From a virus (Duplodnaviria > Heunggongvirae > Uroviricota > Caudoviricetes), in IMG/VR virus record IMGVR_UViG_3300032050_000030: 51,781 nt of DNA; one strand, written 5' to 3'. Below, one piece after another: positions 13,276-43,732 of this stretch. Every line of letters starts with the position of its first letter. The stretch's first letter is position 1. Under the pieces are notes generated by a model. It was not told the origin of the DNA and did no database searches. It worked only from the letters and a program-made list of their open reading frames with translations. A program made the translations under genes and the position numbers.

Positions 13276-13503
13276 ATGCGTGTCGCTGTAATTTGCCCAA
13301 CTTGTGCAACAAACATTAATTCAGTTTGCGTCATTTATGATGGCGAATATCTGGAAAATCTAGATGTATCCCCTGGAGACACTTTAGAAGATATTCTCAA
13401 GAAAATAAATGATAGCTGTGCCTGTGTGCCTCCTACAACTACCACTACTAGTACAAGTAGTAGTACCAGCACAACAACAACTACCACCACTTCTCCTTTA
13501 TAA
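13276..13503 (+). CDS. Module-A stub protein with poly-Thr/Ser tail
   Basis: CPTCATNINSVCVIYDGEYL...DTLEDILKKIN resembles the N-termini of 13514 and 20538; ends TTTTTSTSSSTSTTTTTTTSPL. Confidence 0.75.
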   Translation: MRVAVICPTCATNINSVCVIYDGEYLENLDVSPGDTLEDILKKINDSCACVPPTTTTTSTSSSTSTTTTTTTSPL

Positions 13504-13513
13504 TAATATATAG

Positions 13514-16500
13514 ATGAACGTTAATTGTGGAGCTACCCCCTGTCCAGTTATACTGAATAGCACCTGCGTATTTTACGAAGGTGCTAATCTAGTTTATACA
13601 GGTATCAACACCAATGATAATCTGGAAACTGCTCTTGAGAAGATAGATGCAGCTTTCCAATCATCAGGATTAATATACGTATTTGATAACGGTATAGTTC
13701 AGCTCCCTTCTCAGCCTGTAAAGTTGGGAGGAAGTTTAATTGAAAACACTACTATTAATAGTAGTGGATATTTGTTTAAACTAACGGGAACAATTGAGTC
13801 TGCTGCTTTCAGAACAACTGGAGGCACAGCTTCTCAATTTGTCAGGGGAGATGGTACACTTGGTAATATTCCTATTGCTACAAGTGGTACCTCTGGCTCT
13901 AGTGGTAGTAGTGGAACTAGAGGTACGTCTGGTACCACAGGTACATCTGGTACTAGTGGATCAAGTGGTGCTCCTGGAACACATGGTACGTCTGGAACAT
14001 CTGGTTCTTCTGGAACTAGAGGAACCTCTGGCACTTCAGGGACAAGTGGTACTAGTGGACTTAATGGCACTAATGGTAGCAATGGTACATCAGGTACTAG
14101 TGGCGTAGATGGTATTATAGGATCAAATGGTTCCTCTGGATCTAGTGGAACATCTGGTACAGATGGGGCTGGTTCGGACCCAATGAACTATGTAACTGTT
14201 GGTCTACCTGGAAGTATAGGTGTTGACTTTAATTCTGTAGAAGCTGCAGTTAATAGTATCACTACAGCTACAGCAAGTAGTCCTTGGACAGTTAAGGTAT
14301 ATCCTGGACTCTATATAGAGAATACTATTACAATGAAGTCTTGGATTAGTGTTAAAGGTGAAAGTCACACTACCACTGTTATCCAAGCAAGTAATCCGAA
14401 TAATCCTGTGTTTGTAATGGCGGATCAGTCTCTTGTGATTGATGTGCAGATACAAGGATCAACAGGAACTGGTGCAGCTGCTGTTGTATATTCTTCCCCA
14501 ACCACTCCTCAGACAAATGCAATTGCTTACGTAGAGAACGTAAGATTTGGTGCTAACTACACCCACGCAAAGGTGATCGGTGTACCTGGTGGTAACTGTA
14601 TATTACAATGTTCCAACGTTAAATATGGCGGTTATCCATTCACTGTAGGTTTCCATGTAACGAATAGCGGTGGTGGTATTGGTAGGATGCAGTTGAGAAA
14701 CGTAACTTCCACCAATGGTGGCGTTGTTACCACTGCAGGATTGATATTTGCTTTGGCAGATCAGCCAGGTTGTACATTTATTGTAAACGGATGTTTACTT
14801 ACAAAAGCAGTAGGTGCTCCTGCTGGTACAGGTTTCTGGGTTGAGAACGGTGGTTCTCTACGTCTTACAGCTGTAAACTTCCAGAGATGGGCAACAGCAA
14901 TTTATGCTCCTAATGTGGGATCAGCTCCAAGTATATTTGGATCTGCCCTCAACTTTGAAAACAATACAAAAGACGTTGTTGTACAACATCCTACAGCAAC
15001 TGGTCATATAGAAGGTACAGATTCATTCCTTAAAACAGAAATTCCCATCCCTGCTCCTCTGTATGAGGTGAATACAGATCCTAGGGTGATCACGGTGGGA
15101 ACAAAGGGTGCTGACTTCACATCAATTAAAGCTGCTGTTGACTGGATCACTGGATCAAGTGCAAGTAATAGGTTTGTTGTACAGGTGGGTCCTGGTCAGT
15201 TTTTTGAAGATGAGATTGATCTAACATCCAAACCATACGTAAGTATTGTTGGTAGTAACATTCAGACAACACAGATATTCCCTAATTCTGCTACACAACA
15301 TCTTATCAGGATAGGTCAGAATAACGAGGTTTCGTTTTTGAGTTTGGCAAATGCTCCTGCTGGATATGCTGCTATATATTGTGATGATATTGGTGACTTT
15401 GCTCAAGCGCACAAGGTGTCATTCTACAATTGTGACACTGGTGTATGGATTAAATCTTCTACACAAGACACAGTGTTCTTTGGTGAATATCTGGACATGA
15501 ATGAGGTGTTCAGTTATGGTGTTAAGGTGGAGGCTACAAATGGATTTTTTGCTACAGCCAACCTAGAGAACTACTATCTGTTTCCTGTTGGAGCAGGTGC
15601 TGCCATTGGTACATATGCTTCAGGATCAGGTGCTGAACTATCTATGTACACTTGTTCCTTTGCAGGAGAAGGAGCTACAGGTTCTGTGTGTATTCAGCTG
15701 CAAGATGGTGCTGATCTAGAGACAGCTGGACTAGATATTCCTGATTGGGATTATGGTATACAAGTATTGAATGTGGGCAATCCATGTTCTTTTAAGGTTG
15801 TAGGTAGCATGATTCATAATTCCAGCACTTATGACATTGATGTACAAGACACATTATGTATAGGCAGATTCCAGGGTGTGTCTGATCATACTAAGATAAA
15901 TAATCAAAGTAATAATTTCTTCTGGAACTTCTTGGATGATACAGATGGTGAGAATGATATTACAAGAAAACTATCTGTAACATTTCAAGATGGAACACAT
16001 ACAGATGCATCAACACTCATATTCAACGGTAGTCCTATGGGACTTATGGATGGAGGTAATATCACTGTTGTAAGTGGACTACAAATACTAGTAGATGCAG
16101 GATATGGTTATCTGGAAGATTCAATTTCTCCAGATATATATAAAAGAATAGATTGGACAAATACCAACCTAACACTATCTGCAAATACAGACAATTATAT
16201 ATACATTAACGACAGTGCTATATTGTCTGCTTCTGGTACACCACCAAGCAGCTTGACAAATATTATCCTTGGTAGAGTGGTGACAAATTCCACTACAATT
16301 GAGCTCATAGATGACTCTCCTTACCAAGCAGATCACATGTCTAATAAGCTTTCTACATTCAATAGAAATGCCCTTGGATCTGTATATGTTTCAGGATCTT
16401 CTGTAGCAGAGAATGTTACACCATTCAGACTAGATGTTGGTTCAGGTAATTATTATTTCTCTGAAAACAACTTCCTTCCTTCAGGTGGAACAGCAATTAC

Positions 16501-18937
16501 ATTTAATCAGTATTATAGAGATGGTGGAACTGGTTGGACTATAAGTTCTACGAACACAGTTAATAATACACAATACGATAATGGTACAGGAACGCTTGCT
16601 TCCCTGACAGCATTGTATTATACTAAACATACACTGTATGTTGTAGGTCAGGGAGCTAATGAAAAATACTTCCTTGTACTTGGACAAGCTGAATATTCTA
16701 CACTTGTAGCAGCGGAAGGTGCTGATTTGCCTACACCTCCTACATATTTTACAGATGGTGTAGTTCCCATTGCATCCATATATATTCAGCAGGGAGACAC
16801 AAATATTGTACAGATTGAGGATATTCGCCCAGTGATTGGTTTCAAAGCTAGTGGTGTATCTGCTACAGCTGTACATGGAAACCTTTTGGGTTTAGCTGCT
16901 GATGACCACATTCAATATCTCCTTGTAGATGGAACCAGACAAATGTCTGGTGATCTTGGACTAGGAGGTAATGATATATTCAATGCATCTAACATAACTG
17001 CTTCTGCTCTCACAGATACCAATACACTTAAGATTAGTGGTATTACAAACGATGAGCTACAAACAAGAGTTGTTGTTGTAGACTCTTCTGGTAATACATA
17101 TTATAAAACTTCAGGAGTGGGGGGCACTGGAGGTACATCTGGTACTAGTGGTAGTTCTGGTACTACAGGTACCAGTGGAACTAGCGGTACTGATGGTAGT
17201 TCTGGGACATCTGGTAGCTCTGGTAGTAGTGGATCAAGTGGTACTGATGGAATAAATGGCACTAATGGTACCTCAGGTACTACAGGTACATCGGGCTCTT
17301 CAGGAACCACAGGTACATCAGGAACCAGTGGAAGTAGTGGTTCTAGTGGAATTAACGGAACCAATGGTACGTCTGGAACTAGTGGGGTGGATGGAACAAA
17401 CGGTACTTCAGGAAGCAGTGGTTCTAGTGGAACAACAGGAACTAGCGGCACAACAGGAACTAGTGGTACGTCTGGTATTAACGGTACTAATGGAACTAGT
17501 GGTACATCAGGAATCAATGGTACAAACGGAACCTCAGGCACCACTGGTACTTCAGGAACTACAGGAACCTCTGGCACATCAGGCAGCTCTGGATCATCTG
17601 GTATAAATGGTGTTAATGGTACAAACGGTACTAGTGGAACCAGCGGATCGTCTGGTATAAATGGAACCAATGGCACTTCAGGTACCACTGGAACAAGTGG
17701 AACAAGTGGTGTTAACGGTACCAACGGTACATCTGGTACCACAGGTACAAGTGGAACTTCTGGTCAGAATGGAGTAAATGGTACAAATGGAACTAGTGGC
17801 ACTAGTGGCACAACAGGTACCTCAGGTACAAGTGGTGTTTCTGTGAATGGCACCAATGGTACTAGTGGTACTAGTGGGACCAGTGGTACAGATGGTGTTG
17901 CAGGAACTAACGGAACCAGTGGGACAAGTGGTATTAATGGTACGAATGGTACCAGTGGGACAAGTGGAACAACTGGTACGTCTGGTACAAGTGGAAGCTC
18001 TGGCATAAATGGAACTAACGGTACATCAGGAACTAGTGGTACAACTGGTACATCTGGCACTAGCGGTTCTAGTGGCATTAATGGTGTAAACGGAACCAAT
18101 GGAACTTCTGGTACAACTGGCACAAGTGGTACGAGTGGTACAAGTGGTATACAGGGCACTAATGGTACATCTGGCACCAGTGGCACTAGTGGAATAAACG
18201 GAGCAAATGGTACCAATGGTACATCTGGAACATCTGGTAGTAGTGGATCTAGTGGTGTAGATGGTTCTTTTCTTGGAACTAATGGTACAAGCGGAACAAG
18301 TGGAACCAGCGGTGTGAATGGTGTTATAGGATCTAACGGTTCTTCTGGCTCTTCTGGAACTTCTGGTACAAGTGGTGTAGATGGTATTGTAGGAAGTAAT
18401 GGAACAAGTGGTACTAGTGGTACATCAGGTATATCACCAACAGGTCAAATTATATTAACAGCAGCTGGTAGCTGGCCTTCAATAACATCGGGTGCTAACT
18501 CTCCAATACAAAGTGAAACAATAACAAATGACGTTAACTTTTATTATGTAGGATTTGCAGATGTTGTTACATCGTATTGTAACTGGGCATTAGCTATGCC
18601 TTCAGATTATAATGGAGGCACTATAACAGCTGTGTTCTATTGGGTGGCAGGTGTAGCATCAACAAATAGTGTTGTTTGGGGGTTATCAGCTAGAGCATTT
18701 GCTGACAACCAAGCTTTGGATCAAGCATTTGGTACTGTACAAACTGTAACAGATGCTAATCAGGGAAACGATATAGTAAATATATCAGCAGCAACACCAG
18801 CTATTACAATTGGGGGAACACCAGCTGCAGGTAACTATGTACAATTTAGAGCGGAAAGACAAGGTGGTGCTGGTGGTGATACATTAGCAGCAATAGCAGA
18901 ATTATTACAAATAAGAATAACCTACACAAGAGCTTAA
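13514..18937 (+). CDS. Long fibre/tailspike-like protein: module A, G-T-S repeats, two beta-helix-like domains
   Basis: 1807 aa. Two pectin-lyase-like caps (DFNSVEAAV...VKVYPGLY; DFTSIKAAV...VQVGPGQF) and long G-x-x repeat tracts. Located downstream of the ejection proteins. Confidence 0.75.
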   Translation: MNVNCGATPCPVILNSTCVFYEGANLVYTGINTNDNLETALEKIDAAFQSSGLIYVFDNGIVQLPSQPVKLGGSLIENTTINSSGYLFKLTGTIESAAFRTTGGTASQFVRGDGTLGNIPIATSGTSGSSGSSGTRGTSGTTGTSGTSGSSGAPGTHGTSGTSGSSGTRGTSGTSGTSGTSGLNGTNGSNGTSGTSGVDGIIGSNGSSGSSGTSGTDGAGSDPMNYVTVGLPGSIGVDFNSVEAAVNSITTATASSPWTVKVYPGLYIENTITMKSWISVKGESHTTTVIQASNPNNPVFVMADQSLVIDVQIQGSTGTGAAAVVYSSPTTPQTNAIAYVENVRFGANYTHAKVIGVPGGNCILQCSNVKYGGYPFTVGFHVTNSGGGIGRMQLRNVTSTNGGVVTTAGLIFALADQPGCTFIVNGCLLTKAVGAPAGTGFWVENGGSLRLTAVNFQRWATAIYAPNVGSAPSIFGSALNFENNTKDVVVQHPTATGHIEGTDSFLKTEIPIPAPLYEVNTDPRVITVGTKGADFTSIKAAVDWITGSSASNRFVVQVGPGQFFEDEIDLTSKPYVSIVGSNIQTTQIFPNSATQHLIRIGQNNEVSFLSLANAPAGYAAIYCDDIGDFAQAHKVSFYNCDTGVWIKSSTQDTVFFGEYLDMNEVFSYGVKVEATNGFFATANLENYYLFPVGAGAAIGTYASGSGAELSMYTCSFAGEGATGSVCIQLQDGADLETAGLDIPDWDYGIQVLNVGNPCSFKVVGSMIHNSSTYDIDVQDTLCIGRFQGVSDHTKINNQSNNFFWNFLDDTDGENDITRKLSVTFQDGTHTDASTLIFNGSPMGLMDGGNITVVSGLQILVDAGYGYLEDSISPDIYKRIDWTNTNLTLSANTDNYIYINDSAILSASGTPPSSLTNIILGRVVTNSTTIELIDDSPYQADHMSNKLSTFNRNALGSVYVSGSSVAENVTPFRLDVGSGNYYFSENNFLPSGGTAITFNQYYRDGGTGWTISSTNTVNNTQYDNGTGTLASLTALYYTKHTLYVVGQGANEKYFLVLGQAEYSTLVAAEGADLPTPPTYFTDGVVPIASIYIQQGDTNIVQIEDIRPVIGFKASGVSATAVHGNLLGLAADDHIQYLLVDGTRQMSGDLGLGGNDIFNASNITASALTDTNTLKISGITNDELQTRVVVVDSSGNTYYKTSGVGGTGGTSGTSGSSGTTGTSGTSGTDGSSGTSGSSGSSGSSGTDGINGTNGTSGTTGTSGSSGTTGTSGTSGSSGSSGINGTNGTSGTSGVDGTNGTSGSSGSSGTTGTSGTTGTSGTSGINGTNGTSGTSGINGTNGTSGTTGTSGTTGTSGTSGSSGSSGINGVNGTNGTSGTSGSSGINGTNGTSGTTGTSGTSGVNGTNGTSGTTGTSGTSGQNGVNGTNGTSGTSGTTGTSGTSGVSVNGTNGTSGTSGTSGTDGVAGTNGTSGTSGINGTNGTSGTSGTTGTSGTSGSSGINGTNGTSGTSGTTGTSGTSGSSGINGVNGTNGTSGTTGTSGTSGTSGIQGTNGTSGTSGTSGINGANGTNGTSGTSGSSGSSGVDGSFLGTNGTSGTSGTSGVNGVIGSNGSSGSSGTSGTSGVDGIVGSNGTSGTSGTSGISPTGQIILTAAGSWPSITSGANSPIQSETITNDVNFYYVGFADVVTSYCNWALAMPSDYNGGTITAVFYWVAGVASTNSVVWGLSARAFADNQALDQAFGTVQTVTDANQGNDIVNISAATPAITIGGTPAAGNYVQFRAERQGGAGGDTLAAIAELLQIRITYTRA
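13878..14170 (+). repeat. Short Gly-X-X (GTS/GSS/GTN) repeat tract
   Basis: TSGTSGSSGSSGTRGTSGTTG...; Gly at nearly every third residue, synonymous codons vary. Confidence 0.9.
17110..18432 (+). repeat. Long Gly-X-X (GTS/GTT/GTN/GIN) repeat tract, about 440 aa
   Basis: Nearly continuous G-x-x periodicity without Pro; degenerate at DNA level. Confidence 0.9.
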
Positions 18938-20537: not shown

Positions 20538-23063
20538 ATGATTGTCAGTTGTGAAGCTACTCCTTGTCCAGTGATACTGAGTGCCACTTGTGTTTTTTAC
20601 AAGGGAGAGAATCTCATTTACACTGGCATCAATATGAACGACAACTTGCAAACTGCCCTTGAGAAAATCGATGGGAAGTTTCAAGATGTTGGGCTAGGAT
20701 ATATATTTGAGAATGGTATAATTCAACTTAGTCCAGGTCAGCCTGTAAGATTGGGTGGTTCTCTAATGCAGAACACCACAATCAATAGTGCAGGGTATAC
20801 ATTCACTATATCTGGATCAATTCAAAGTGGTGCACATATTACCACTGGGGGTACATCCTCACAATTTGTTAAAGGAGATGGATCTCTAGATTCAACAACA
20901 TATCAACCTGCAGGTTCATATATTACAGGACTTACAGGGGATGGTATAGCATCTGGTCCAGGTAATGTACCATTGACACTAGCTACTGTAAATGCTAACC
21001 CTGGAACTTATGGAAATGCAGTTACAGTTCCTGTAGTTACAGTGAATGCAAAAGGATTGGTTACAAACATCACCCCTATTGCAATATCTATTCCTGCTGA
21101 TTCAATTGTTCTTGTTGGAGATGTGAGTGCTGTTGGTGTAACTGGTACTAATATTACAGCAACACTAGCCACAGTTAACTCAAATGTATATGGATCAAAC
21201 ACATTCCTGAAGTTTGCAGTTAATGGTAAAGGACTAGTAACCTCTGCCACACCTGTTGTATTAGGAGATTTGACATCTGTTCTTGGGTTTATGCCTGTTC
21301 CAGATAGTAGAACTCTGACAATCAATGGATTAACAAAAGATTTAACAGCTGATAGAACCTGGAACGTAGGCACTGTAACCAGTGTACAAGCATCTGTACC
21401 ACCAGCATTCTCTGTAACATCAGCTCCCATAACATCATTTGGTACAATAAATATTGTAGCTAATGGTGATACATCTCAGTATATAAGAGGTGATGGATCA
21501 TTAGCAGCTTTTCCTGCAGTATCAACAACATCTGGTACTTCTGGTACTTCTGGTGTAAGTCCGTCAATTACAAACATATATAACTCAGATGGTACACTTA
21601 CTGGTAATCGTGTGATGAGCCTTGATTCTAAGCGGTTAATATTTAGGGACACTAATGCTACCTTAACTAACTATACATATTCAGTTGGTGTGCCTACGGG
21701 TGTGACAGCACCTACTTGGCCATCGTCTTTTGTGTATGAAGGTCAGTATAATATTGTACCTGGAACGGGTCCTCAAATATTCAATACGAGAGTATGGGGA
21801 AGAAACACTTCAGCTACAAATAATAATCTTTGGGTTCAAGAAACCTTTGCAGATATTACTTCAGAATCTACTTCCTTTACTAACATTTATAATCAAACAT
21901 TTTTTACAGGTAGAGGTAGTACATTAGATACATCTACTGCTACCGCTTCTGTAATGCGTGGGATTTGGTCAAATATTGGCCATAGATACGCTGGCTCTCA
22001 ATCAACAACAGTACAGATTAATACAAATAATATACAAAGCTTTTACAGCACAATTGTTAATTATATTGGGAATGTAAGTAATGCTTATGGATATTTTTCT
22101 AGTCTGTCACAAGGTTCTTTAACCACATCGCAAACAAATACATTAACAAACCATTATGCTTTTTATGCAGAAGCAACAATAGGTTCTGCGAGTGGGGGCT
22201 CTTCTACTGTTACAAATTACTATGGTTTGTTTCTTAATACCCCAACTGTTGGGGCAACAGGTGTAATCACAAATCGATGGGGAGTATACGCTCCAGACTC
22301 CGCAATGAGTCACTACTTAAACGGGAATGTTGTCATTGGTACTACTACACTTGCTGGATATAAGCTAGATGTGTCTGGAACATCAAGATTGGCAAATACA
22401 CTTTCTTCTGGATTCGGGACAATTATTTCAACCACTCAAACTCAGGCTAATTCTACAGACGTGGGCGATGGTGCTGTATCTGTATCTCATAGTATATCTG
22501 CAACATCAGCAACCAATGAACTTGTAATAAGAGCAATGTCATTTGGTAGCAACAACAACCTAACGGGTGGTGGAGCAGTTACCAATCATAGAGTATGGAA
22601 CGTAGCATCTAGCACTCAAGCGGGAAGTATAACTACAGACCTTGACCAAATATTTATAGAGAGGGGTAATCAAGCTAATGGAACTGTAACAAATAATAGG
22701 GCTATACGTGTTAACACAATGCAAGGAACTAATAGGGCTGGGTTTGCCTGTGTTGCATTATCTGGAACCAATAATGTGTATGCACTACTTGGAACTGTTA
22801 CAATACCTACTGGAAACTGGGGCATTCATCAAACACAGTCTAACTTTAACAACTACTTTGCAGGTAAGATTTTGATTGGCACTACCACTGATCCTGGATT
22901 AGGAGTATTGCACGCTGTTGGTGGTTTATCTACAGATTCGCCTGCTGGAGGTACTGCAAGAACATGGAAGCTTGGGCAATATAATGCAACTGCTCCCACT
23001 GCCACTGGATATATAGAGGTGGAAGTTAATGGGGTTCTTTATAAACTTTTAGCATCAACTTAA
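20538..23063 (+). CDS. Second fibre protein with module-A N-terminus
   Basis: First ~115 aa align with 13514 (TPCPVIL..TCVFY.G.NL.YTGIN.NDNL.TALEKID...QPV.LGGSL..NTTINS.GY...SQFV.GDG.L); shaft-like repeats TVNAKGLVT / AVNGKGLVT. Confidence 0.75.
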   Translation: MIVSCEATPCPVILSATCVFYKGENLIYTGINMNDNLQTALEKIDGKFQDVGLGYIFENGIIQLSPGQPVRLGGSLMQNTTINSAGYTFTISGSIQSGAHITTGGTSSQFVKGDGSLDSTTYQPAGSYITGLTGDGIASGPGNVPLTLATVNANPGTYGNAVTVPVVTVNAKGLVTNITPIAISIPADSIVLVGDVSAVGVTGTNITATLATVNSNVYGSNTFLKFAVNGKGLVTSATPVVLGDLTSVLGFMPVPDSRTLTINGLTKDLTADRTWNVGTVTSVQASVPPAFSVTSAPITSFGTINIVANGDTSQYIRGDGSLAAFPAVSTTSGTSGTSGVSPSITNIYNSDGTLTGNRVMSLDSKRLIFRDTNATLTNYTYSVGVPTGVTAPTWPSSFVYEGQYNIVPGTGPQIFNTRVWGRNTSATNNNLWVQETFADITSESTSFTNIYNQTFFTGRGSTLDTSTATASVMRGIWSNIGHRYAGSQSTTVQINTNNIQSFYSTIVNYIGNVSNAYGYFSSLSQGSLTTSQTNTLTNHYAFYAEATIGSASGGSSTVTNYYGLFLNTPTVGATGVITNRWGVYAPDSAMSHYLNGNVVIGTTTLAGYKLDVSGTSRLANTLSSGFGTIISTTQTQANSTDVGDGAVSVSHSISATSATNELVIRAMSFGSNNNLTGGGAVTNHRVWNVASSTQAGSITTDLDQIFIERGNQANGTVTNNRAIRVNTMQGTNRAGFACVALSGTNNVYALLGTVTIPTGNWGIHQTQSNFNNYFAGKILIGTTTDPGLGVLHAVGGLSTDSPAGGTARTWKLGQYNATAPTATGYIEVEVNGVLYKLLAST

Positions 23064-23417: not shown

Positions 23418-23555
23418 ATGGAATTAGTTGAATTAAAGGCTAAAGCCTATGATATCATTAGTCAGATTGAGTATTTACAGAAGCTGTTACAAGAAACTAA
23501 TCAGCAAATTGCTGTGAAAATTCAAGAACAAGAAGCTATGAAGGGTGGTGAATAA
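23418..23555 (+). CDS. Small coiled-coil protein (45 aa; not in the ORF track)
   Basis: MELVELKAKAYDIISQIEYLQKLLQETNQQIAVKIQEQEAMKGGE; preceded by TACATTTG (23396-23403). Confidence 0.65.
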   Translation: MELVELKAKAYDIISQIEYLQKLLQETNQQIAVKIQEQEAMKGGE

Positions 23556-23572
23556 CCACCCTTTCTTATTTT
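23540..23572. terminator. Probable bidirectional intrinsic terminator
   Basis: aagggtggt-gaata-accaccctt hairpin followed by tcttatttt, at a convergent gene junction. Confidence 0.65.
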
Positions 23573-26500
23573 ATAACATCTATTACATCCTGAGTTGTTA
23601 TTGATGTGTGACATTCAAACTGTCTGTCTGTTCCCTTATGTATAGGACACCAGTTCCAATCTCCTTTATCAAACTTGAAATTGGGATTGTTCCAACATCC
23701 ATTGCATACATCTTTCTTCACCACTCTTGTACATGTAAACTCATGATCAGGTTGGGTGAAATTACTAATCATTATCACTTTTTTATCCATAGCCCATGCT
23801 AACCAGCTCAATCCTGAGCTTAGTCCTATGAAGAACTCAGAATGATGTATAACATTCATTGTGTTCTCTATAGATGTATCATCTATTTGAAGACAATTAT
23901 TAAATGGGTTCTTCTCTTTAGATACATTTATCACACCATATCCCTGTTCTACCAGATAATCAATCACTCCCTGCCATCCTTCTTTGGTCCAGAACTTACA
24001 CCCAGCTGTAGAATTTGTAGCTATGGTGACATATTTACCATATGGATTGTTACCAATTTGGTAACTTATTCTTGGTTTAATCTCTTGATAATCAAGACCT
24101 AAGATGTTAGCTGCACACTTTTGGAGGTTTACAGTGTTTGGTAAAGCTGGTTCTCTATCTGCATCATAGAACCAACCAATCTTATACATTGCGTACACAT
24201 CTGGAATTACATCTCCTGGATTTACAAACTCCAGTTCTGGATAGACGTCCTGGAATAGGAAGTTCTTGAATGTGCTCACTATTACATGGCAGTTGTGTTT
24301 CTTTTTAAACTCTAAACAATAAGGTATCCAAGCAATATTATCTCCCAGAGAGTTGCTCTCAAATGCTATGTACACTCTCCTTCCTTCTAGATTCAGAACG
24401 TTTTCATATATAAGATCGTTATTCTCCCACACTCTGGTTATCCATCTGGTAAAATAACTTCTGTTTAGTTTCACCCAGCAGTTTGGTCCTATCTCATTAG
24501 CATAATACAGAGCTCCTTTATCATCATAAAAACACACCTTGAACTTGTTTACACTTGTTCCTTTGATTTCCAGGAATGGATGTTCAACAAAGTTTTGGGA
24601 AATAGTTACATTGCTCTTTGGTTTCTGTCTTGTTATAGGCAAGGTCACTATATACTTATATAACTCATTGTGCCCCATAGCAAAATGATAGGACGTATTG
24701 TTGATGGGAACAGTGTAGTCACATATAATTGTATCCAGATCTGTATCAATTGGTTGCAGATATGGAGTGAACATATCCTCATACTGAGGAAGGTTTCTTG
24801 CTATAATTGGTAGCTGATGGGAGATTGCTTCTCTCAACACCAATGGATTACATTCCCATGTACTATTGAACATGAATACGTCAGCAGCCTCAAGGAATGT
24901 TTCTGTATCATTTCTTTCTCCCCACACTATCACATTCTTTGGAACATCTTTCATTAATGGTTCCCAGTAGTGCTGGAAGTTTGGTGCCTGGTTTCCAACA
25001 AAATGAAACATCATGTGTGGGTACTTACGAGCTATTTCTAATCCTTCACCCTGATTCTTACCTGGAGTCCATAGTCCTATATTAACAACATGTTTCTTAT
25101 CACTACTAAACCCAAGCTTCTGTCTAGCAGCCTGTCTTGTTTCAAATGATACAGGATTGATTTCTATGGGAAACTCCAATACTTGTTTGTAGCTAGGCAT
25201 GTTTGCAAATGTCTTCAGATGATGGGGGGTACAGAAGGCATATGCTTCTGGGTGGTACATCTTATGTTTGTCTGGTTCAAACCACACATTGTGACAAGTT
25301 TCTACAATTCTCCAAGTTCTGTTGTTGTCATATAACTTAGCAAGTAGATCCTGAGGTATATGATTGTAACTATCAAATCCTTCTACTATCTCATCTATAT
25401 GCACTATATCAATATTATTGTTTTTAATAATATCGATGATCTCATGTTTGTTATCTGATAAGGTGTAAAAATTATTCACCAGTTCTCTTATCTGGTTCTT
25501 CTGCACTACATATGCTGGACCATAATCTGTATATTCTACAACAAATATCTCTACGTTGCTGTATTTCTTCAGCACCTGTATACGTTTTAACAGGAATCCA
25601 GGCATACCACCTGTAGATAGGTGGGGTGCAAGGAACAGCACTTTCATAGACTTTTTCACTGTCTTTTCCAGTTCATGTATCATTTCGTGCATTACATTGC
25701 TCTTTTTCTCACCATGGAAAGCAAACAGATATTCTTTCTTAGCTGGAATCTTAAACCAGCTAGATATCTCTCTAGCTACACCAGTGAAGCCTAACTCATT
25801 ATATATCTTGTCAATAGTATCAAGTGTACCATTTACATAAACGTATGGAAGTCCTGTAAGTATTTTCTTTTTCCAAAGAAGTATATTTACAATGGTTTCC
25901 TCATGGAATGGTGCATAGTATTGAGGATTCTTCATCACCTCAGGATGCTTACACATCCAATACCACTCATCCAGAAACTTTATACAATTAGTATTGGCTA
26001 CAAAGTATCCAGTTTGTCTGTATTTGGTTCTGACGTATTGGTCTACACCAAACAACTCACATGCTGGAGCTTCTAGTGTCATGGATAAATCGTTCTTATC
26101 TTTAGCCGCACCTCTACCATTTGCAAACAAATATTCATATATCCCCTCTGTGAAATATGGATAGTCTACATTCTTTGGATAGAGGGAGAATATATTGTCT
26201 ATGTATGGAGTGACAACACTATCACTGTCTATATATGCTACAGTGCGAGCATATCCTAATGTATCTTTTACAATAGCTGGGCGTTCTATCAATAGTCTAT
26301 AAATATCACCATCTAATCTATCAATATAGTCAGATTTACTATTTGCTGACACTCTAGAGAACCAGTATCTAGTGGTAGCCCCATCTATATCAGCATCAAA
26401 GTTGATAGTGTACACCACTACGGGAATTTTGCTGAACTTATTTATAGATGCTACACAAGCTTTTGCTGTCTCCAAATAGGAAGATGTTGTACACAGGACA

Positions 26501-27024
26501 TACACCTTATCCACCATACTCTCTAACATGGAATAATATCCATAGTACTCGTTGGTGAATATAGGAGTGAGGAAAGGATATCTCTCCTTCATCACTTCTT
26601 TAGTTAAGTCTGGCTGAAGATGGGTTTCATATATATTCCCATATTCCTCCCCATCCTGCTCCATGGTGTATGGAATAGCCACCATACATTCCTTATTCCA
26701 ATAGCGTATGTTCTTAATAAGCTCCTGGGCTTTGGTGGTTTCTATATGTTCCAGAACATCTCCTAAAATAATAAAGTCGTAGTCCTTATAATCAAAATCG
26801 GTGATATCACCAATATAGACATTGTCATATTTCTGTCTCAGCTGAAACTGATTTACATACGGTTCCCATATTTCTATGGCATCCATTCTATATCCCAGAT
26901 CTCTAAGTAGGTTGGAATATGTTCCTATCCCTGGTCCAACATCAAGTATTCTCTTACTAGTGGGAACGTTCTCAATGAACCACTGCCTCACCTCATCTTT
27001 GAAAAAGTTATAACTGTTTGGCAT
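23566..27024 (-). CDS. Four-domain fusion: SAM methyltransferase + GT-A glycosyltransferase + GT4-like + TibC/Aah-type O-heptosyltransferase
   Basis: ILDVGPGIG and GDVLEH (MTase); YIDSD (DxD); KVLFLAPHLSTGG and ADVFMFNSTWECNPLVLREA (GT-B); SLGDNIAW and CNGCWN...WCP...QFEC (BAHT iron-finger Cys set). ATG 27024 is preferred over the track start 27060 because a -7 element occupies 27030-27037. Confidence 0.8.
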   Translation of the reverse strand: MPNSYNFFKDEVRQWFIENVPTSKRILDVGPGIGTYSNLLRDLGYRMDAIEIWEPYVNQFQLRQKYDNVYIGDITDFDYKDYDFIILGDVLEHIETTKAQELIKNIRYWNKECMVAIPYTMEQDGEEYGNIYETHLQPDLTKEVMKERYPFLTPIFTNEYYGYYSMLESMVDKVYVLCTTSSYLETAKACVASINKFSKIPVVVYTINFDADIDGATTRYWFSRVSANSKSDYIDRLDGDIYRLLIERPAIVKDTLGYARTVAYIDSDSVVTPYIDNIFSLYPKNVDYPYFTEGIYEYLFANGRGAAKDKNDLSMTLEAPACELFGVDQYVRTKYRQTGYFVANTNCIKFLDEWYWMCKHPEVMKNPQYYAPFHEETIVNILLWKKKILTGLPYVYVNGTLDTIDKIYNELGFTGVAREISSWFKIPAKKEYLFAFHGEKKSNVMHEMIHELEKTVKKSMKVLFLAPHLSTGGMPGFLLKRIQVLKKYSNVEIFVVEYTDYGPAYVVQKNQIRELVNNFYTLSDNKHEIIDIIKNNNIDIVHIDEIVEGFDSYNHIPQDLLAKLYDNNRTWRIVETCHNVWFEPDKHKMYHPEAYAFCTPHHLKTFANMPSYKQVLEFPIEINPVSFETRQAARQKLGFSSDKKHVVNIGLWTPGKNQGEGLEIARKYPHMMFHFVGNQAPNFQHYWEPLMKDVPKNVIVWGERNDTETFLEAADVFMFNSTWECNPLVLREAISHQLPIIARNLPQYEDMFTPYLQPIDTDLDTIICDYTVPINNTSYHFAMGHNELYKYIVTLPITRQKPKSNVTISQNFVEHPFLEIKGTSVNKFKVCFYDDKGALYYANEIGPNCWVKLNRSYFTRWITRVWENNDLIYENVLNLEGRRVYIAFESNSLGDNIAWIPYCLEFKKKHNCHVIVSTFKNFLFQDVYPELEFVNPGDVIPDVYAMYKIGWFYDADREPALPNTVNLQKCAANILGLDYQEIKPRISYQIGNNPYGKYVTIATNSTAGCKFWTKEGWQGVIDYLVEQGYGVINVSKEKNPFNNCLQIDDTSIENTMNVIHHSEFFIGLSSGLSWLAWAMDKKVIMISNFTQPDHEFTCTRVVKKDVCNGCWNNPNFKFDKGDWNWCPIHKGTDRQFECHTSITTQDVIDVIK

Positions 27025-27029
27025 ATAGG

Positions 27030-27061
27030 CAAATGTAGAAAAAATATTTGGTAGTTTCAAA
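27030..27061 (-). promoter_or_regulatory. Bacteroidota-type promoter for the glycosyltransferase fusion
   Basis: Minus strand TTTG (27061-27058), 20 nt, TACATTTG (27037-27030), 5 nt, ATG. Confidence 0.7.
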
Positions 27062-27078
27062 TAAAATACATAGTTTTG
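27047..27078 (+). promoter_or_regulatory. Bacteroidota-type promoter for the lysis cassette
   Basis: TTTG (27047-27050), 20 nt, TAGTTTTG (27071-27078). Confidence 0.7.
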
Positions 27079-27106
27079 TTACCTAAGGGTGTACCTTCTA
27101 CTTAAT

Positions 27107-27122
27107 GCTATATTATGCCCAA
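27107..27122 (+). promoter_or_regulatory. Copy 2 of 16-bp motif GCTATATTATGYCCAA
   Basis: gctatattatgcccaa. Confidence 0.45.
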
Positions 27123-27181
27123 CAAGGGCATTTAAGTGACTATAATTACATAACACATCATTTCTTTTCGGAGGGAATGGT

Positions 27182-27808
27182 GTGTTTTTTATTTCCCATA
27201 TAATGAAGATAAGTAATATAATTAATGTCCTTCTAGCTCTGTTTGTATTGATTCTCCTGTATAAGGCTGAATGTGGCAAGCCTGTTGTTCCAGGTAAGGA
27301 TATTGTTGTGGGCGGTAAGACGTACGAAGTGATTAAACAAGTGATTGATACTCAATACGTTACAGTAAAAGAAACCAAATACAAAAAAGGAGAAGACATC
27401 TATCATGACACTACTATTTATGTATCTGTGCCTGTGCTTGACACTGCACAGATGCAGGAGGCCCTATCGAAGTATTACGCAAAAAACATCTTCCAAGACA
27501 CCCTAAAGGTGGGTAAGTTTGGACAAATATATATTAAGGATACAGTTCAATATAATAAACTAGCAGGTAGATCAATGTCTGCAGATTTGATGTTCCCCTC
27601 AATAACCAACACAACCTTCGTTAAGGAAAAACCAAAAGCACAATTATTCCTAGGTGCTAGAATGGATTACCTACAAGGGGGCTCAGTTCAAAACCCAAGC
27701 GTGGGACTGATGCTCAAAACCAAACGTGATAGGTTATATGGAATTTCTGCAGGTGTGTCTCCAAATGGCCAACCTGTTTATGGAGCTAGTTTTTATATTA
27801 AACTTTAA
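27182..27808 (+). CDS. Membrane-anchored protein of the lysis region
   Basis: N-terminal hydrophobic helix (IINVLLALFVLILLY); C-terminal beta-strand-like end YGASFYIKL. True start may be MKISN. Confidence 0.6.
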   Translation: MFFISHIMKISNIINVLLALFVLILLYKAECGKPVVPGKDIVVGGKTYEVIKQVIDTQYVTVKETKYKKGEDIYHDTTIYVSVPVLDTAQMQEALSKYYAKNIFQDTLKVGKFGQIYIKDTVQYNKLAGRSMSADLMFPSITNTTFVKEKPKAQLFLGARMDYLQGGSVQNPSVGLMLKTKRDRLYGISAGVSPNGQPVYGASFYIKL

Positions 27809-30220: not shown

Positions 30221-31561
30221 ATGGCTATAATACCTAAACAAATAGGCTGGAGCCAGGAGTCTAATCTCCTGTGGGAACTTCTTAGGAAGACTGATAGACT
30301 TATTGGTGTAACTTCTAATGTAAACACTAATGTCAACGTAGACAGTGCTATTACATTTGCTCCTTCCACATCACAGGATGCCTTTGGTAGGCTTAGAGTT
30401 TCAGAACCTCTTACAATGTTTGATTCTAGCCATAGGTTTGATGATAATGATCTTTGGTCTACAGCCACTGCTACAAGCGGTGCAGCTGTATTTAATGCTA
30501 ATCAAGGACTTGTAGATCTAAATGTTACAGCTGCTTCTGGATCTTCTGTTACAAGAGAAACAATCAAGGTGTTTGCTTATCAACCAGGTAAATCACTCCT
30601 GGTGATGAACACATTTGTAATGAGTGCTCCTAAAGCAGGTCTTACACAACGTGTTGGATATTATGGAGTTGAAAATGGATTCTATCTGGAACAAGCAAAT
30701 AGTGACATAGCTTTTGTGAAAAGAAGCTATGTAACAGGATCTGTTGTAAATACACCAGTTTTACAAGCTGATTGGAATGTAGATAAGCTTGATGGTAACG
30801 GTCCTTCAGGACTTACACTTGATCTCACCAAGGCTCAGATACTTTGGATGGATTTAGAGTGGTTGGGTGTAGGATCTGTACGTATAGGATTTGTAATAAA
30901 CGGACAGTTTATTTTATGCCATACGTTCCAACATGCTAACATCATCACTAGCACATATATTACAAGTGCATCATTACCTCTGCGTTACGAGATATTCAAC
31001 ACAGCTGGTACATCTGGAGCTAGTACATTGAAACAAATTTGTTCTACAGTGATTTCTGAGGGTGGTTATGAACTTAGAGGTGCACAGTTGTCTGCTGGCA
31101 CATCTATTGTTGCACCAAGAACCTTTGCTTTACCAGGAACCTACTACCCTATTGTATCAATAAGACTTAAATCTACAAGACTAGATGCTATTGCAATTGC
31201 AACAGCTGTTTCTATTTTAGGACTAGGTAATGGTAAAAATTACCAGTGGAGAGTGGTGAATGGTGGTGTTACAACCACTGGAGGATCATGGTTAACTGCA
31301 GCAGCTGATTCTTCCGTAGAATATAATATTACAGCCACTTCTGCATCAGGAGGAAGAGTGTTAGCTAGTGGATTTGTTAATTCATCTAACCAAGGATCTC
31401 CTTCAATTAATATTCTCAAGGAAGCTCTTTTTGCTAATCAGCTTGAAAGAAATGGGTTAACAGGCACACCTTACGAGATTGTAGTAGAAATGGCTGTAGC
31501 CACAACATCTGGTGGTGAGGGTGCATATGCTTCTATAGATTGGGAAGAAATCAGTAGATAA
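30221..31561 (+). CDS. Putative structural protein with module-B N-terminus
   Basis: Starts KQIGWSQESNLLWELLRKTDRLIGVT; beta-rich body (DAFGRLRVSEP...). Confidence 0.6.
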   Translation: MAIIPKQIGWSQESNLLWELLRKTDRLIGVTSNVNTNVNVDSAITFAPSTSQDAFGRLRVSEPLTMFDSSHRFDDNDLWSTATATSGAAVFNANQGLVDLNVTAASGSSVTRETIKVFAYQPGKSLLVMNTFVMSAPKAGLTQRVGYYGVENGFYLEQANSDIAFVKRSYVTGSVVNTPVLQADWNVDKLDGNGPSGLTLDLTKAQILWMDLEWLGVGSVRIGFVINGQFILCHTFQHANIITSTYITSASLPLRYEIFNTAGTSGASTLKQICSTVISEGGYELRGAQLSAGTSIVAPRTFALPGTYYPIVSIRLKSTRLDAIAIATAVSILGLGNGKNYQWRVVNGGVTTTGGSWLTAAADSSVEYNITATSASGGRVLASGFVNSSNQGSPSINILKEALFANQLERNGLTGTPYEIVVEMAVATTSGGEGAYASIDWEEISR

Positions 31562-31576
31562 TAAATTTAATATATC

Positions 31577-31714
31577 ATGTCAGTACCAAATAGACAAATA
31601 GGATGGAGTAATGAGGCTAATCTGCTTTATCAAATATCTAAGCAATTGGATCAATTGATTAAGGTGACAGCAGCATTGTCTACCACTACCACCACAACAA
31701 CAGCAGCTCCATAG
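31577..31714 (+). CDS. Module-B stub protein with poly-Thr tail (45 aa; not in the ORF track)
   Basis: MSVPNRQIGWSNEANLLYQISKQLDQLIKVTAALSTTTTTTTAAP; aligns with the N-terminus of 30221. Confidence 0.8.
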   Translation: MSVPNRQIGWSNEANLLYQISKQLDQLIKVTAALSTTTTTTTAAP

Positions 31715-31745: not shown

Positions 31746-32336
31746 ATGAGGGACTTAAAATTTATCTGTGAAGAATGGAAAATTATTCCAGAATTTGATG
31801 GATATGAAGTTAGTAGTCTAGGTAATGTTAGAGGCATAAACAGACTTAGAAAAGGTAAAAATGGACTATGTTTGCTAAAAGGAAAAGATTTAAAACAATC
31901 TTTTAATAAAAAAGGATATCCTGAGGTAAGGTTTCGTAAAGAAGGTTGTCACACTAGACTAGTTCATAAACTTGTGGCTAGTGCCTTTCTGACAAAACCT
32001 GAAGGTTGTACCCAGATTAACCATATTAATGGTGTAAAAACAGATAATAGGTTAGAAAACTTGGAGTGGGTTACTCAATCAGAAAATCAACTACATGCCT
32101 ATAAACTTGGTTTACAACCTAGTAGAGCTGGTGAAGGAAATGGTAGAGCAAAACTTAATGATGAAAAGGTTACTGCTTTAAAAGAATTATATAATTCAGG
32201 AAAAAGTATAAAAGAGATTTCTAAAATAACAAACATAAATTTATATACTGTAAGACAAATTATTTATGGACAAACTTGGAAATCAAACACTACCAAAGTA
32301 GTTAGAAGAGATGAAAGATTTAAACCAACTATATAA
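31746..32336 (+). CDS. Free-standing NUMOD4-HNH homing endonuclease
   Basis: EEWKIIPEFDGYEVSSLGNVR (NUMOD4); LVHKLVASAF...QINHINGVKTDNRLENLEWVTQSEN (HNH). Confidence 0.9.
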   Translation: MRDLKFICEEWKIIPEFDGYEVSSLGNVRGINRLRKGKNGLCLLKGKDLKQSFNKKGYPEVRFRKEGCHTRLVHKLVASAFLTKPEGCTQINHINGVKTDNRLENLEWVTQSENQLHAYKLGLQPSRAGEGNGRAKLNDEKVTALKELYNSGKSIKEISKITNINLYTVRQIIYGQTWKSNTTKVVRRDERFKPTI

Positions 32337-33364
32337 TGAGTAAAGAACTAAAATTCGTGACCGCCCAGCCCGATGATAACTATTACATCTGGCAAGTGCA
32401 CATGTGGCTAGAAAGTCTGAAAACGCTTGGACATTCTGACAAAGCTATTGTTCTTGTTTTCACTCCCAACTTCAGAGAAAGGAATCAGGAATGGAAAAAG
32501 GTTGCTGACCTCTATCCAGAAGCTGAGTTCTTTTATGTAAAGGATGAGGATGAGATTAGCCAGATGCTCAAGGTTTACATTCCTGTATTACGTCCTTATT
32601 CTCTGATGAAATACTTCCAGGCTAATCCAGATATGGTGAATAAGGCAGTGTTTTATTGTGATAGTGATGTGGTGTTTACAGAGAACTTCAATGTAGATGC
32701 TTATCTGGAAGATGATGTATGCTATCTATCAGATACAAACAGTTATATAAGTGCCTCATATTTTGACAGCAAGGTGAAGGATGTACTTCCTGACAAGCTG
32801 AAAGAATATAAAACCAGGGATGTGCTGGCAGAAGTGACCAGCATGATTGGTATAACAAGAGAGATTTGTGAGCGCAATGAGGAAAATTCAGGCGGTGCAC
32901 AGTATCTCCTGAAAAATATAGGTGCAAGTTTCTGGGAAAAGGTGTTGGGTGATTGCTTAATCATCAGAACCTATCTCAGAAATATAAATAAAGATTACTT
33001 CGAGAACGAGAGTAAAGGATATCAATCTTGGTGTGCGGACATGTGGGCTGTTCTCTGGAACCTCTGGTTGAGGGAACAAGAGACAAAGGTGATTCCAGAA
33101 CTGGAATTTGCATGGAGCTCAGATCATATATCCAGACTTGAGAGAGTGGGCATCCTGCACAATGCAGGAATTGTAGGAGATAGTCAGGGTGACATTCCTA
33201 CATTCTACAAGGGTAAATACCACACAGGGGATAATCCTTTTAAAGACCCACACATCTACGAGGTGCTTGATAGTGAGAAGAGTAGGACACTCTGCAACCA
33301 CTACTACTTAAAACAATTATTCAACATTAAAAACAAATACAATTTAGATTATGGCCACAATTAA
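32336..33364 (+). CDS. GT-A glycosyltransferase resembling peptide O-glycosyltransferases (GT95 HPAT / GT96 SGT1-like)
   Basis: YYIWQVHMWLESL, LRPY, FYCDSDVVF (DxD), WCADMWA, ILHN; order and spacing recall the Y.xWQ...DxD...W.xEM pattern of GT95/GT96. Family call by eye. Confidence 0.55.
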   Translation: MSKELKFVTAQPDDNYYIWQVHMWLESLKTLGHSDKAIVLVFTPNFRERNQEWKKVADLYPEAEFFYVKDEDEISQMLKVYIPVLRPYSLMKYFQANPDMVNKAVFYCDSDVVFTENFNVDAYLEDDVCYLSDTNSYISASYFDSKVKDVLPDKLKEYKTRDVLAEVTSMIGITREICERNEENSGGAQYLLKNIGASFWEKVLGDCLIIRTYLRNINKDYFENESKGYQSWCADMWAVLWNLWLREQETKVIPELEFAWSSDHISRLERVGILHNAGIVGDSQGDIPTFYKGKYHTGDNPFKDPHIYEVLDSEKSRTLCNHYYLKQLFNIKNKYNLDYGHN

Positions 33365-33572
33365 CAAACGCCCTCTCAAAGCTTATGTACGCTTTGATGG
33401 TTCTGGGAGAGTAGTTCCCAGCAGCCTGATCCTCAGAAGGAAGAAGCCTAAGGTGGGAAATTGGACAGAGATTCCAGCATATGAGTGCTGCAATGAAACC
33501 ACTACCACCACTACTAGCACTAGCACTAGCACTAGCACAACAACTACCACTACCACAGCAGGTCCACTATAA
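33351..33572 (+). CDS. Module-C stub protein with poly-Thr/Ser tail
   Basis: KRPLKAYVRFDGSGRVVPSSLILRRKKPKVGNWTEIPAYECCN then ETTTTTTSTSTSTSTTTTTTTAGPL. Confidence 0.8.
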   Translation: MATINKRPLKAYVRFDGSGRVVPSSLILRRKKPKVGNWTEIPAYECCNETTTTTTSTSTSTSTTTTTTTAGPL

Positions 33573-37748: not shown

Positions 37749-38029
37749 TGCAATTACACAGAAAGTTCTTTCCTCCTGTAATGCAGGATAACGAACTAGC
37801 ATATTTCTCTCATCTACAGGGTGTAATAGACTCTGTAGATGAGCTTTCAATATTGGAAGTGACAAAGCACCCTAATGCATACCATTTTAGGCTTGCTCCC
37901 TCCCTTCCAAAATACAACCAATTATTGCTGGAAGAAATATTAAAACTCCATAACCTATTACAAATTAAATTGAATTTGTCAAAGAGCATAAAAAGCTCAG
38001 CAACAATTGTTTTTGAAATAGAAATATGA
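37748..38029 (+). CDS. Hypothetical protein (93 aa)
   Basis: Coupled ORF in the operon. Confidence 0.55.
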   Translation: MQLHRKFFPPVMQDNELAYFSHLQGVIDSVDELSILEVTKHPNAYHFRLAPSLPKYNQLLLEEILKLHNLLQIKLNLSKSIKSSATIVFEIEI

Positions 38030-38913
38030 AAAACCTAATACTTATTGTATTATTAATTGCTTTACCGTTTTCCTGTCAAAAGGAACCTAGTAGAGTTATT
38101 TATCCTCCAGAAATTTGTAACTTTGGAGAATTGGATAATGCTGTATATCCCAGAGAGGAGTTTGAACTTGCCAGATCTGGATCTGTACGTATAAAAGATT
38201 CAGATAGAGATGGGGTGGCTGATAATATAGATAACTGTCCCAGAAAAGCCAATGCTGACCAAAAGGACAGTGATGGAGATGGTATAGGAGATGTCTGTGA
38301 CAGCTCTCCTTTCTCTGTACCAGTGACAACACAGGGTGTAATTCTTCTAGATTTTGATGGGTATTATTTAAATAGTCCATCCTGGAACAATGGTATTCCT
38401 ATTCAGTGTCAGCCTAGTGGTCTCTATCCAGCAGATGTACAAACAATATTAGATAGTGTATCCAAAGACTACAATAGATTCAATCTTATTGTCACTACAG
38501 ATGAGAACGTATACAATGCTGCCAATAGATATAAAAGAATGAGGATCGTTGTTACAACATCGAGTGAGATATATCCAGGGGTGGCAGGTATAGCATATAG
38601 AGGAAGTATGTTCTGGGGAAGCGAAACTCCAGGATTTGTATTCTCCAACACCATGTCATTTAATCCATTGAGAATCAGAGTGACTGTTTCCCATGAATCT
38701 GGACATACAATAGGCTTACAACATCAGGCCCAATATGACGCAAACTGCAATCTACTATATACATATAAACCATGTGACTACCTATCTGGACCTATAATGG
38801 GATCTATAGGAGGTAATTGTCTTCCTCTCTGGTGGGTGGGACCAACTCCTACAGCATGTACAGATATACAGAATGACAGTGCTATAATTAAGGCTAATGT
38901 AGGGGTAAAATAA
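38026..38913 (+). CDS. Lipoprotein with thrombospondin type-3 repeats and a metzincin protease domain
   Basis: Lipobox-like LPFSC; DSDRDGVADNIDNCP...DSDGDGIGDVCD; HESGHTIGLQH (HExxHxxGxxH) with a downstream PIMG Met-turn. Confidence 0.8.
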   Translation: MKNLILIVLLIALPFSCQKEPSRVIYPPEICNFGELDNAVYPREEFELARSGSVRIKDSDRDGVADNIDNCPRKANADQKDSDGDGIGDVCDSSPFSVPVTTQGVILLDFDGYYLNSPSWNNGIPIQCQPSGLYPADVQTILDSVSKDYNRFNLIVTTDENVYNAANRYKRMRIVVTTSSEIYPGVAGIAYRGSMFWGSETPGFVFSNTMSFNPLRIRVTVSHESGHTIGLQHQAQYDANCNLLYTYKPCDYLSGPIMGSIGGNCLPLWWVGPTPTACTDIQNDSAIIKANVGVK

Positions 38914-43727: not shown

Positions 43728-43732
43728 GGTAG

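Follow-up and report, generated by a model that had tools for sequence, protein, structure and literature searches.

The stretch of DNA analyzed here (the window, 51,781 nucleotides, IMG/VR record IMGVR_UViG_3300032050_000030, GC content ~37%) comes from an uncultured marine phage of the class Caudoviricetes and covers a phage late region, with giant open reading frames (ORFs), a collagen-like tail fiber, a GH19 endolysin, and a virion protein that is also common to cyanomyophages and HMO-2011. Embedded in this region, with all of its neighbors on the opposite strand, is a gene for one predicted soluble protein of 1152 residues that joins a methyltransferase and two glycosyltransferases to a trimmed relative of the E. 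coli heptosyltransferase TibC. An initial annotation of this DNA had described it as a four-enzyme fusion and as the sole long minus-strand ORF of the structural/lysis block, which is true between 1 and 43 kb; both GC skew and AT skew flip over the gene. The open frame (23566..27060, minus strand) encodes 1164 amino acids (aa) if counted from a TTG at 27060, and residue numbers below follow this count. The likely start is the ATG at 27024, which removes 12 residues, because few homologues are aligned before residue 13 (low occupancy in the homologue alignment) and the protein atlas record of the fusion also begins there; the start originally proposed is thus backed by both. The protein has no membrane-like segment (highest Kyte-Doolittle mean over 19 residues, 1.19). 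The gene, its domains and the residues discussed below are as follows.

23566..27024, minus strand: four-domain fusion gene, 1152 aa from the ATG at 27024, stop codon at 23566-23568
26548..27024, minus strand: class I S-adenosylmethionine (SAM)-dependent methyltransferase domain, residues 13-171, with motif I ILDVGPGIG at 26923-26949
25666..26547, minus strand: GT-A fold glycosyltransferase domain, GT8-like, residues 172-465, with DSD at 26221-26229 and HGEK at 25705-25716
24661..25665, minus strand: GT4 domain (GT-B, retaining), residues 466-800, with EX7E at 24829-24855
23569..24660, minus strand: bacterial autotransporter heptosyltransferase (BAHT, TibC-like) domain, residues 801-1164, with an N-terminal beta-barrel (24361-24609) and a GT-B catalytic core
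24340..24342, minus strand: Asp907, aligned to the TibC catalytic base Asp110
23860..23862, minus strand: Thr1067, at the position of TibC Arg286
23611..23706, minus strand: C1119, C1122, C1138 and C1150, aligned to the TibC iron-finger residues Cys339/342/358/370

The identities originally given to all four domains hold, as judged by Pfam, NCBIfam-type models, predicted folds and conserved residues. The C-terminal domain matches TIGR04414, the model for autotransporter strand-loop-strand O-heptosyltransferases, over residues 839-1164 (E 1e-83, 281.4 bits, curated cut-off 200), and by sequence it matches TibC (4rap) at 8e-51 with 30% identity. Its AlphaFold2 (AF2) model, with a mean predicted local distance difference test score (pLDDT) of 92.3 and eight N-terminal strands, superimposes on TibC 4rap in Foldseek with a template modeling (TM) score of 0.89, a root-mean-square deviation of 2.7 Å and an E of 3e-34. 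Lipopolysaccharide (LPS) heptosyltransferases are far more distant, at 25 bits for LPS heptosyltransferase I and TM scores of 0.4-0.5 for WaaC/WaaF, and PF01075 (GT9) matches only weakly. From these bit scores and superpositions the domain groups with the protein heptosyltransferases; the grouping with LPS enzymes that the initial annotation had named as a refuting outcome is not what was found.

At the residue level the comparison is with E. coli TibC and AAH, and in particular with the TibC structures PDB 4RAP/4RB4; TibC heptosylates protein Ser, with D110 as catalytic base (PMC4358343). The aligned residue, Asp907, lies inside SLGDNIAW (24328-24351, as first annotated) and is invariant in 120 homologues, as are T1018, K1022 and W1086, which align to the TibC donor contacts Thr226, Lys230 and Trp305. 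The four cysteines, also where they had been annotated and again invariant in the 120 homologues, form a putative iron finger, in which iron would be bound as it is in TibC. The position of TibC Pro300 is occupied by Ser, the same as in AAH, an enzyme that accepts both heptose epimers (PMC4358343).

Two features set the domain apart. In TibC, Arg286 contacts adenine N1 and is the basis of ADP-sugar specificity, and the dodecamer is held together hand in hand by a beta-hairpin thumb tipped with Phe265-Val266 (PMC4358343). Thr1067 takes the place of Arg286 in the fusion, and Thr is likewise found in 116 of 120 close homologues and 39 of 43 phage sequences, with Arg in 62 of 79 sequences from a genome collection. 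The thumb region (residues about 1044-1064, just before Thr1067) is ~10 residues shorter than that of TibC; its median length is 21 residues in phage sequences vs 31 in classical bacterial enzymes. Across the 43 phage and 79 genome-collection sequences the two traits go together, short thumb with Thr and long thumb with Arg, the latter combination being that of enzymes from Burkholderia, Kosakonia, Enterobacter, Bradyrhizobium and others. A FastTree phylogeny separates 56 classical sequences from all 44 phage sequences plus 21 short-thumb contigs with support of 1.0. Given the short thumb and this split, the BAHT domain belongs, on sequence criteria, to a distinct short-thumb subfamily that probably does not form a TibC-like ring; a two-copy complex prediction of the domain scored 0.00 and was counted neither way. 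The initial description of the domain as TibC/Aah-type is therefore correct as to BAHT membership (curated model, fold, catalytic Asp, four Cys) and needs amending as to its place, which is outside the classical TibC/AAH/BimC clade, with a short thumb and no Arg286. We also considered a clade made up of phage sequences only and rejected it, the best such split having a support of just 0.34.

The three domains upstream were assigned by sequence models or by fold. The methyltransferase matches PF13489 (29.5 bits, cut-off 27) and PF08241 (29.6 bits, cut-off 21.2) over residues 32-120, keeps its motif I residues in about 113-116 of 120 homologues, and is 36% identical to a methyltransferase of mycobacteriophage Phrappuccino whose gene follows three glycosyltransferase genes. 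The GT4 domain is recognized by PF00534 (5.5e-10, 39.5 bits, gathering score 26.4), PF13692 (1.3e-8) and phrog_2170; of the two EX7E glutamates, E736 shows no variation among 120 homologues and E744 is kept in 119. Matches of this domain to PDB sequences are marginal (best WaaG, 0.015) and give no hint of donor or acceptor. The GT-A region (residues 172-472) has no Pfam match at E<=1, a profile search of PDB sequences with it was empty at E<=10, and it does not reach the PF01501 (GT8) sequence model, such that a language-model lead is alone in pointing to PF01501/PF03407. Its AF2 model (pLDDT 89.4), by contrast, retrieves the UGGT catalytic domain, glycogenin, galactinol synthase and WaaO/RfaI in Foldseek (E 1e-7 to 5e-9, TM ~0.5). 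Judged from this model, residues 172-465 are a retaining GT-A enzyme nearest to GT8, GT6 and GT24, and GT8-like by fold only. D278 and D280 of the DSD motif (278-280), H449, G450 and K452 are invariant in 120 homologues, and E451 is present in 117.

The fusion is one member of a large family. There are 3211 near-length relatives, of which more than 100 are collinear at 55-70% identity and lie on contigs of 95-120 kb; IMG/VR gave at first 215 and then more than 580 matches to the fusion; and in a library of 1.84 billion proteins the BAHT domain accounts for 733 clusters (50% identity) at E<1e-30, with 136 of the best 150 exceeding 450 aa and being fusions. The fusion gene and 20 kb of the window have no megablast match among GenBank phages. 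Relatives are already labeled 'autotransporter strand-loop-strand O-heptosyltransferase' by the source pipelines, and our literature searches turned up no publication dealing with BAHT enzymes or O-heptosyltransferases of phages or with glycosylated collagen-like phage fibers. A cultured relative exists in the cyanophage Microcystis phage Mel-JY01 (L242, PP395634.1, 4750-8430), where a 1226-aa protein annotated only as 'methyltransferase FkbM' ends in ~360 residues of BAHT domain with 41% identity; its gene adjoins a structural protein gene and has a cytidylyltransferase-like gene nearby.

Among 156 phage loci, the BAHT domain is accompanied by GT4 in 154, by GT-A in 109 and by a methyltransferase in 60, and variants swap in or add an FkbM methyltransferase, GT32, GT25, a pyruvyl transferase or a second GT9 domain. 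GT4-BAHT is thus the constant core, around which the remaining modules are exchanged freely. Such a division into a fixed inner pair and changeable outer modules would be predicted for a glycan with a conserved core and a diversifying periphery, and fits the assembly-line arrangement suggested by the initial annotation.

What such an assembly line might act upon is indicated by the neighboring genes. Neither the window nor the related loci contain an autotransporter with a beta-helical passenger; the neighbors are collagen-like or (Thr-Pro-Thr-x)n repeat proteins. Two kinds of candidate acceptor are encoded in the window.

13514..18937, plus strand: tail fiber of 1807 aa with matches to PHROG tail fiber and collagen-like families, the best candidate acceptor
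13276..13503, plus strand: 75-aa stub with a poly-Thr/Ser tail, a less likely acceptor (further stubs at 31577-31714 and 33351-33572)

The fiber contains 534 residues of proline-free, collagen-like (Gly-Thr/Ser-Ser/Thr/Asn)n repeats, encoded at 13886-14173 and 17114-18436, in which X of Gly-X-Y is mostly Thr and Y mostly Ser. It also shares a Cys-rich N-terminal region of ~115 residues with an 841-aa fiber (13514-13860 and 20538-20880), and the head of the 75-aa stub is related to this region.

Gly-X-Y repeats of this proline-free kind occur in 41 of 51 BAHT-centered loci with full flanks, and most of the others have large (Thr-Pro-Thr-x)n proteins. Six loci devoid of collagen-like repeats (L034, L036, L041, L046, L067, L081) carry, on the structural strand, ORFs of 600-1200 aa with long (Thr-Pro-Thr-x)n tracts. 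With a single neutral criterion (any ORF of 150 aa or longer in which some 45-aa window reaches 50% Ser/Thr), a large Ser/Thr-rich ORF is present in 53 of 55 BAHT-centered loci of 20 kb or more vs none of 15 BAHT-less loci centered on the shared virion protein. A genome-level comparison used 15 long phage records that have the virion protein encoded at 30221-31561: DNA coding for (GTS)4 adjoins the BAHT gene in both BAHT-positive records and is found in none of the 13 BAHT-negative ones. The most independent of these tests concerns contigs from bacterial genomes, one genome per species from several phyla, in which genes for Gly-Ser/Thr-Ser/Thr repeats accompany 14 of 16 short-thumb BAHT loci, mostly 0.1 to 2.1 kb from the BAHT match and in one case ~5 kb away, and Ser/Thr-rich tracts are seen in only 3 of 29 classical BAHT loci (Fisher 4e-7 vs short-thumb). 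The short-thumb loci with repeats come from Bacteroides, Pseudobdellovibrionaceae, Methylococcales, Acidiferrobacterales, Arenicellales, Bradyrhizobium and others. Almost always the Ser/Thr tracts are on the strand opposite to the enzyme gene (209:1 and 606:19). The earlier suggestion of a protein Ser/Thr acceptor is therefore backed by a strong neighborhood association in both phage and bacterial loci, and of the two acceptors then proposed this association favors the collagen-like fiber; the poly-Thr stubs instead co-vary with another enzyme, encoded at 32336-33364.

Clues to the sugar donor come from relatives. In locus L003, whose orthologue is 61% identical to the fusion, the region directly downstream of the fusion (L003:13607-18665) encodes homologues of heptose-7-P kinase (3e-38), heptose-1-P adenylyltransferase (4e-29) and ADP-heptose 6-epimerase (5e-52), these labels being best NCBIfam matches that all fall below the curated cut-offs. 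A small phosphatase and a cupin are part of the same cassette, which is followed by an adenosine 5'-phosphosulfate (APS) kinase, a sulfotransferase and an FkbM methyltransferase. We also observed the cassette in L044, L087, L088, L098 and L114, and partial sets in L069, L073-L075 and L078. Homologues of the heptose genes stand beside the fusion in 11 of 163 BAHT-bearing loci vs none of 77 BAHT-less loci, and the sulfation pair (APS kinase and sulfotransferase) in ~26 loci. The cassette suggests that relatives may make their own ADP-heptose and sulfated glycans. Because the relatives with ADP-heptose genes share the Thr at the Arg286 site, this residue is compatible with a heptose-pathway context, and the most likely donor for the fusion, judging from these genes and the domain's relationships, would be ADP-heptose.

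With moderate confidence, we favor a model in which the fusion is a soluble, cytoplasmic, single-chain machine for glycosylation of phage structural proteins, its BAHT domain priming the collagen-like fiber with heptose, GT4 and GT-A extending the glycan, and the methyltransferase capping it. Modification would take place in the cytoplasm, before virion assembly. The TibC-like domain would recognize the Ser/Thr-rich, proline-free repeats of the fiber and, with Asp907 as base, place the first sugar on Ser/Thr hydroxyls, likely heptose from ADP-heptose; the GT4 domain would attach the next sugar and the GT8-like GT-A domain an outer one, and the N-terminal methyltransferase would O-methylate the glycan. 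Activity, donor, acceptor, order of steps, iron binding and oligomeric state are all what we infer from the sequences, models and neighborhoods above.

Several points weigh against this model. The GT4 domain could equally be the primer, and GT4 enzymes can prime Ser/Thr, as does GtfA of the serine-rich-repeat adhesins. Known TibC substrates are beta-helices, not collagen-like helices. Throughout the phage clade Thr replaces the adenine-contacting Arg286, so that the donor could differ in its nucleotide part. The window itself lacks ADP-heptose genes, tblastn with the ADP-heptose and sulfation genes of L003 giving no match within it. All of the association statistics ignore shared ancestry, and the two BAHT-positive records of the 15-genome comparison are probably one lineage.

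The same chemistry might instead, or also, be directed at the tails of the poly-Thr/Ser stubs (13276, 31577, 33351), producing mucin-like hairs, a variant that we consider unlikely. The three stub ORFs terminate in Thr7-x(1-2)-Pro(-Leu) with tails that are nearly pure Thr/Ser, two stub families are conserved across the phage group, and stubs lie within 10 kb of the fusion gene in 27 of the 51 full-flank loci, all of which would suit such a role. However, their tracts follow a different gene, 32336-33364, which encodes a 342-aa protein (phrog_4417) with no Pfam match: tracts of six or more Thr (T6+) occur in 22 of 25 loci with a homologue of this gene and in 5 of 26 without it. The pattern extends to genomes that have no BAHT at all, as among five such genomes that are at least 94% complete the Thr7-coding pattern is present in exactly the three that have a homologue of 32336-33364; conversely, 24 of the 51 BAHT loci have no T6+ tract nearby. 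Tracking that homologue and not BAHT, the stubs were rejected as main acceptors of the fusion and are secondary candidates.

Other targets would call for a different biology altogether. The fusion might alter glycans of the host envelope during infection, be it LPS core, O-antigen or capsule, and so exclude superinfecting phages or mask receptors, its GT9-like domain acting on sugar as WaaC/WaaF do. GT9, GT4, GT8, GT25, pyruvyl transferases, sulfotransferases and sugar methyltransferases are indeed typical of LPS and capsule pathways, and the weak best PDB match of the GT4 domain is to the LPS enzyme WaaG; but the scores given above place the BAHT domain with the protein-directed family, the fusion has no membrane anchor, and its gene sits in the late fiber/lysis block and co-varies with Ser/Thr repeat proteins, which together make this reading improbable in our judgment. 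Glycosylation of host proteins such as surface adhesins or receptors, for takeover or exclusion, would agree with classical BAHTs modifying bacterial surface proteins (PMC4358343). We give this little credence, as the phage loci are without an autotransporter-like partner and their consistent partner is a fiber-type repeat protein on the structural strand. Hypermodification of phage DNA with sugars seems very improbable indeed: phage glycosyltransferases that act on 5-hydroxymethylcytosine-type bases are known, as indicated in bioRxiv 10.1101/2023.12.21.572611, and the replication module of the window has other glycosyltransferase and methyltransferase genes, yet no domain of the fusion resembles DNA glycosyltransferases, its closest characterized relative acts on protein, its gene lies among fiber genes, and the association with Ser/Thr repeats would be left unexplained.

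Compared with known systems, the fusion is closest to TibC and AAH, sharing the beta-barrel and GT-B core, the catalytic Asp, the Thr/Lys phosphate contacts, the heptose-contacting Trp, the four Cys, solubility and presumably the direction toward protein, and with AAH also the Ser at the stereoselectivity position. Those enzymes, however, stand alone at ~400 aa, whereas here the equivalent is the C-terminal domain of a four-enzyme fusion that lacks ~10 thumb residues, has Thr for Arg286, falls in a separate clade and neighbors repeat proteins instead of an autotransporter. O-glycosylation of virions is described for the mycobacteriophages Che8, Corndog and Myrna (Freeman et al. 2023, as cited in PMC12363180 and PMC12582341). 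According to those citing papers, there too the glycosyltransferases are encoded by the phage and act in the cytoplasm on its own structural proteins, but they are separate small enzymes of other families with capsid and tail-tube proteins as acceptors; the citing accounts report no BAHT-type domain, fusion or collagen-like acceptor. WaaC and WaaF (GT9) resemble the BAHT domain in GT-B fold and in an ADP-heptose type of donor site, and differ in having neither beta-barrel nor four-Cys motif and in acting on lipid A-Kdo. In the serine-rich-repeat adhesins of Gram-positive cocci (GtfA/GtfB, Gtf3, dGT1), O-glycosylation is likewise cytoplasmic and stepwise and is carried out by GT4 and GT8-type enzymes, including a bifunctional one, although a BAHT domain and a methyltransferase are both absent from that system, which uses mostly separate enzymes and acts on secreted bacterial adhesins.

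A functional analogy is offered by the cuticle collagen of the vent worm Riftia, which is hydroxyproline-poor and stabilized by glycosylated Thr in the Y position. The phage fiber is proline-free with Thr/Ser in both X and Y, while Riftia is a eukaryote and the enzymes are unrelated; that glycosylation might stabilize the phage fiber is pure conjecture. A broader scenario, which we put forward only tentatively and think rather doubtful as a whole, would be a so far undescribed and very widespread TibC-like subfamily of protein O-glycosyltransferases specialized on proline-free (Gly-Ser/Thr-Ser/Thr)n helices, thumbless and with an altered nucleotide pocket, that has been built into module-swapping phage assembly lines. 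The resulting heptose-based methylated coat, sulfated or pyruvylated in relatives, would both stabilize a hydroxyproline-free triple helix and diversify the fiber surface in an arms race.

The regions flanking the fusion gene bear on its expression.

27025..27202, no strand assigned: divergent intergenic region upstream of the fusion gene
23540..23564, no strand assigned: hairpin with a 10-bp stem, between a converging 45-aa gene (23418-23555, plus strand) and the fusion gene

The initial annotation had given the gene its own promoter and terminator, neither of which we could confirm. A sigma-70 scan found 28 sites vs 21.4 +/- 5.5 expected, which is not above chance and is uninformative, and no promoter could be assigned in 27025..27202. 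Whichever strand is folded, the hairpin at 23540-23564 is stable (-16.5 and -15.6 kcal/mol, z -3.9 and -3.6). The converging 45-aa gene shares this hairpin, whose U-run is confined to the plus strand. A second, terminator-like hairpin lies within the upstream region on the plus strand (27152-27186, 16-bp stem with a trailing U-run, -17.4 kcal/mol, z -4.5). It immediately precedes the next plus-strand gene and could halt antisense read-through across the fusion gene.

Elsewhere in the window, the replication/nucleotide module contains two GT2-family glycosyltransferase genes and a SAM methyltransferase gene (phrog_32762) on the minus strand at 43182-45035, near genes for a dUTPase, a UvsX-like recombinase and a ribonucleotide reductase; these genes might form a modification system of their own, with DNA as a possible target. 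A thrombospondin type 3 repeat and a reprolysin-like zinc metallopeptidase domain are combined in a 295-aa protein of the structural block (38026-38913, plus strand). Two giant ORFs with almost no family matches, of at least 2287 aa and of 2113 aa, occupy 2-13206 on the plus strand, and the second weakly matches a protein of a crAss-like phage (23% identity, 4e-7), a hint that the lineage may be distantly crAss-like. Genes for an HNH endonuclease (31746-32336) and a GIY-YIG homing endonuclease (39401-40024) are inserted among structural and other late genes.

Glycosylated phage particles are documented by experiment essentially only in mycobacteriophages, and a different enzyme family known only from the maturation of pathogen adhesins is now seen in thousands of environmental phage proteins. 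If our model is correct, it names a concrete enzyme-substrate pair, the short-thumb BAHT and Gly-Thr-Ser collagen-like repeats, and describes a natural, modular, single-chain glycan assembly line that could be of use in glyco-engineering. Many aquatic phages would then sugar-coat their fibers, with a bearing on host recognition, on particle stability, and on resistance to proteases and grazers.

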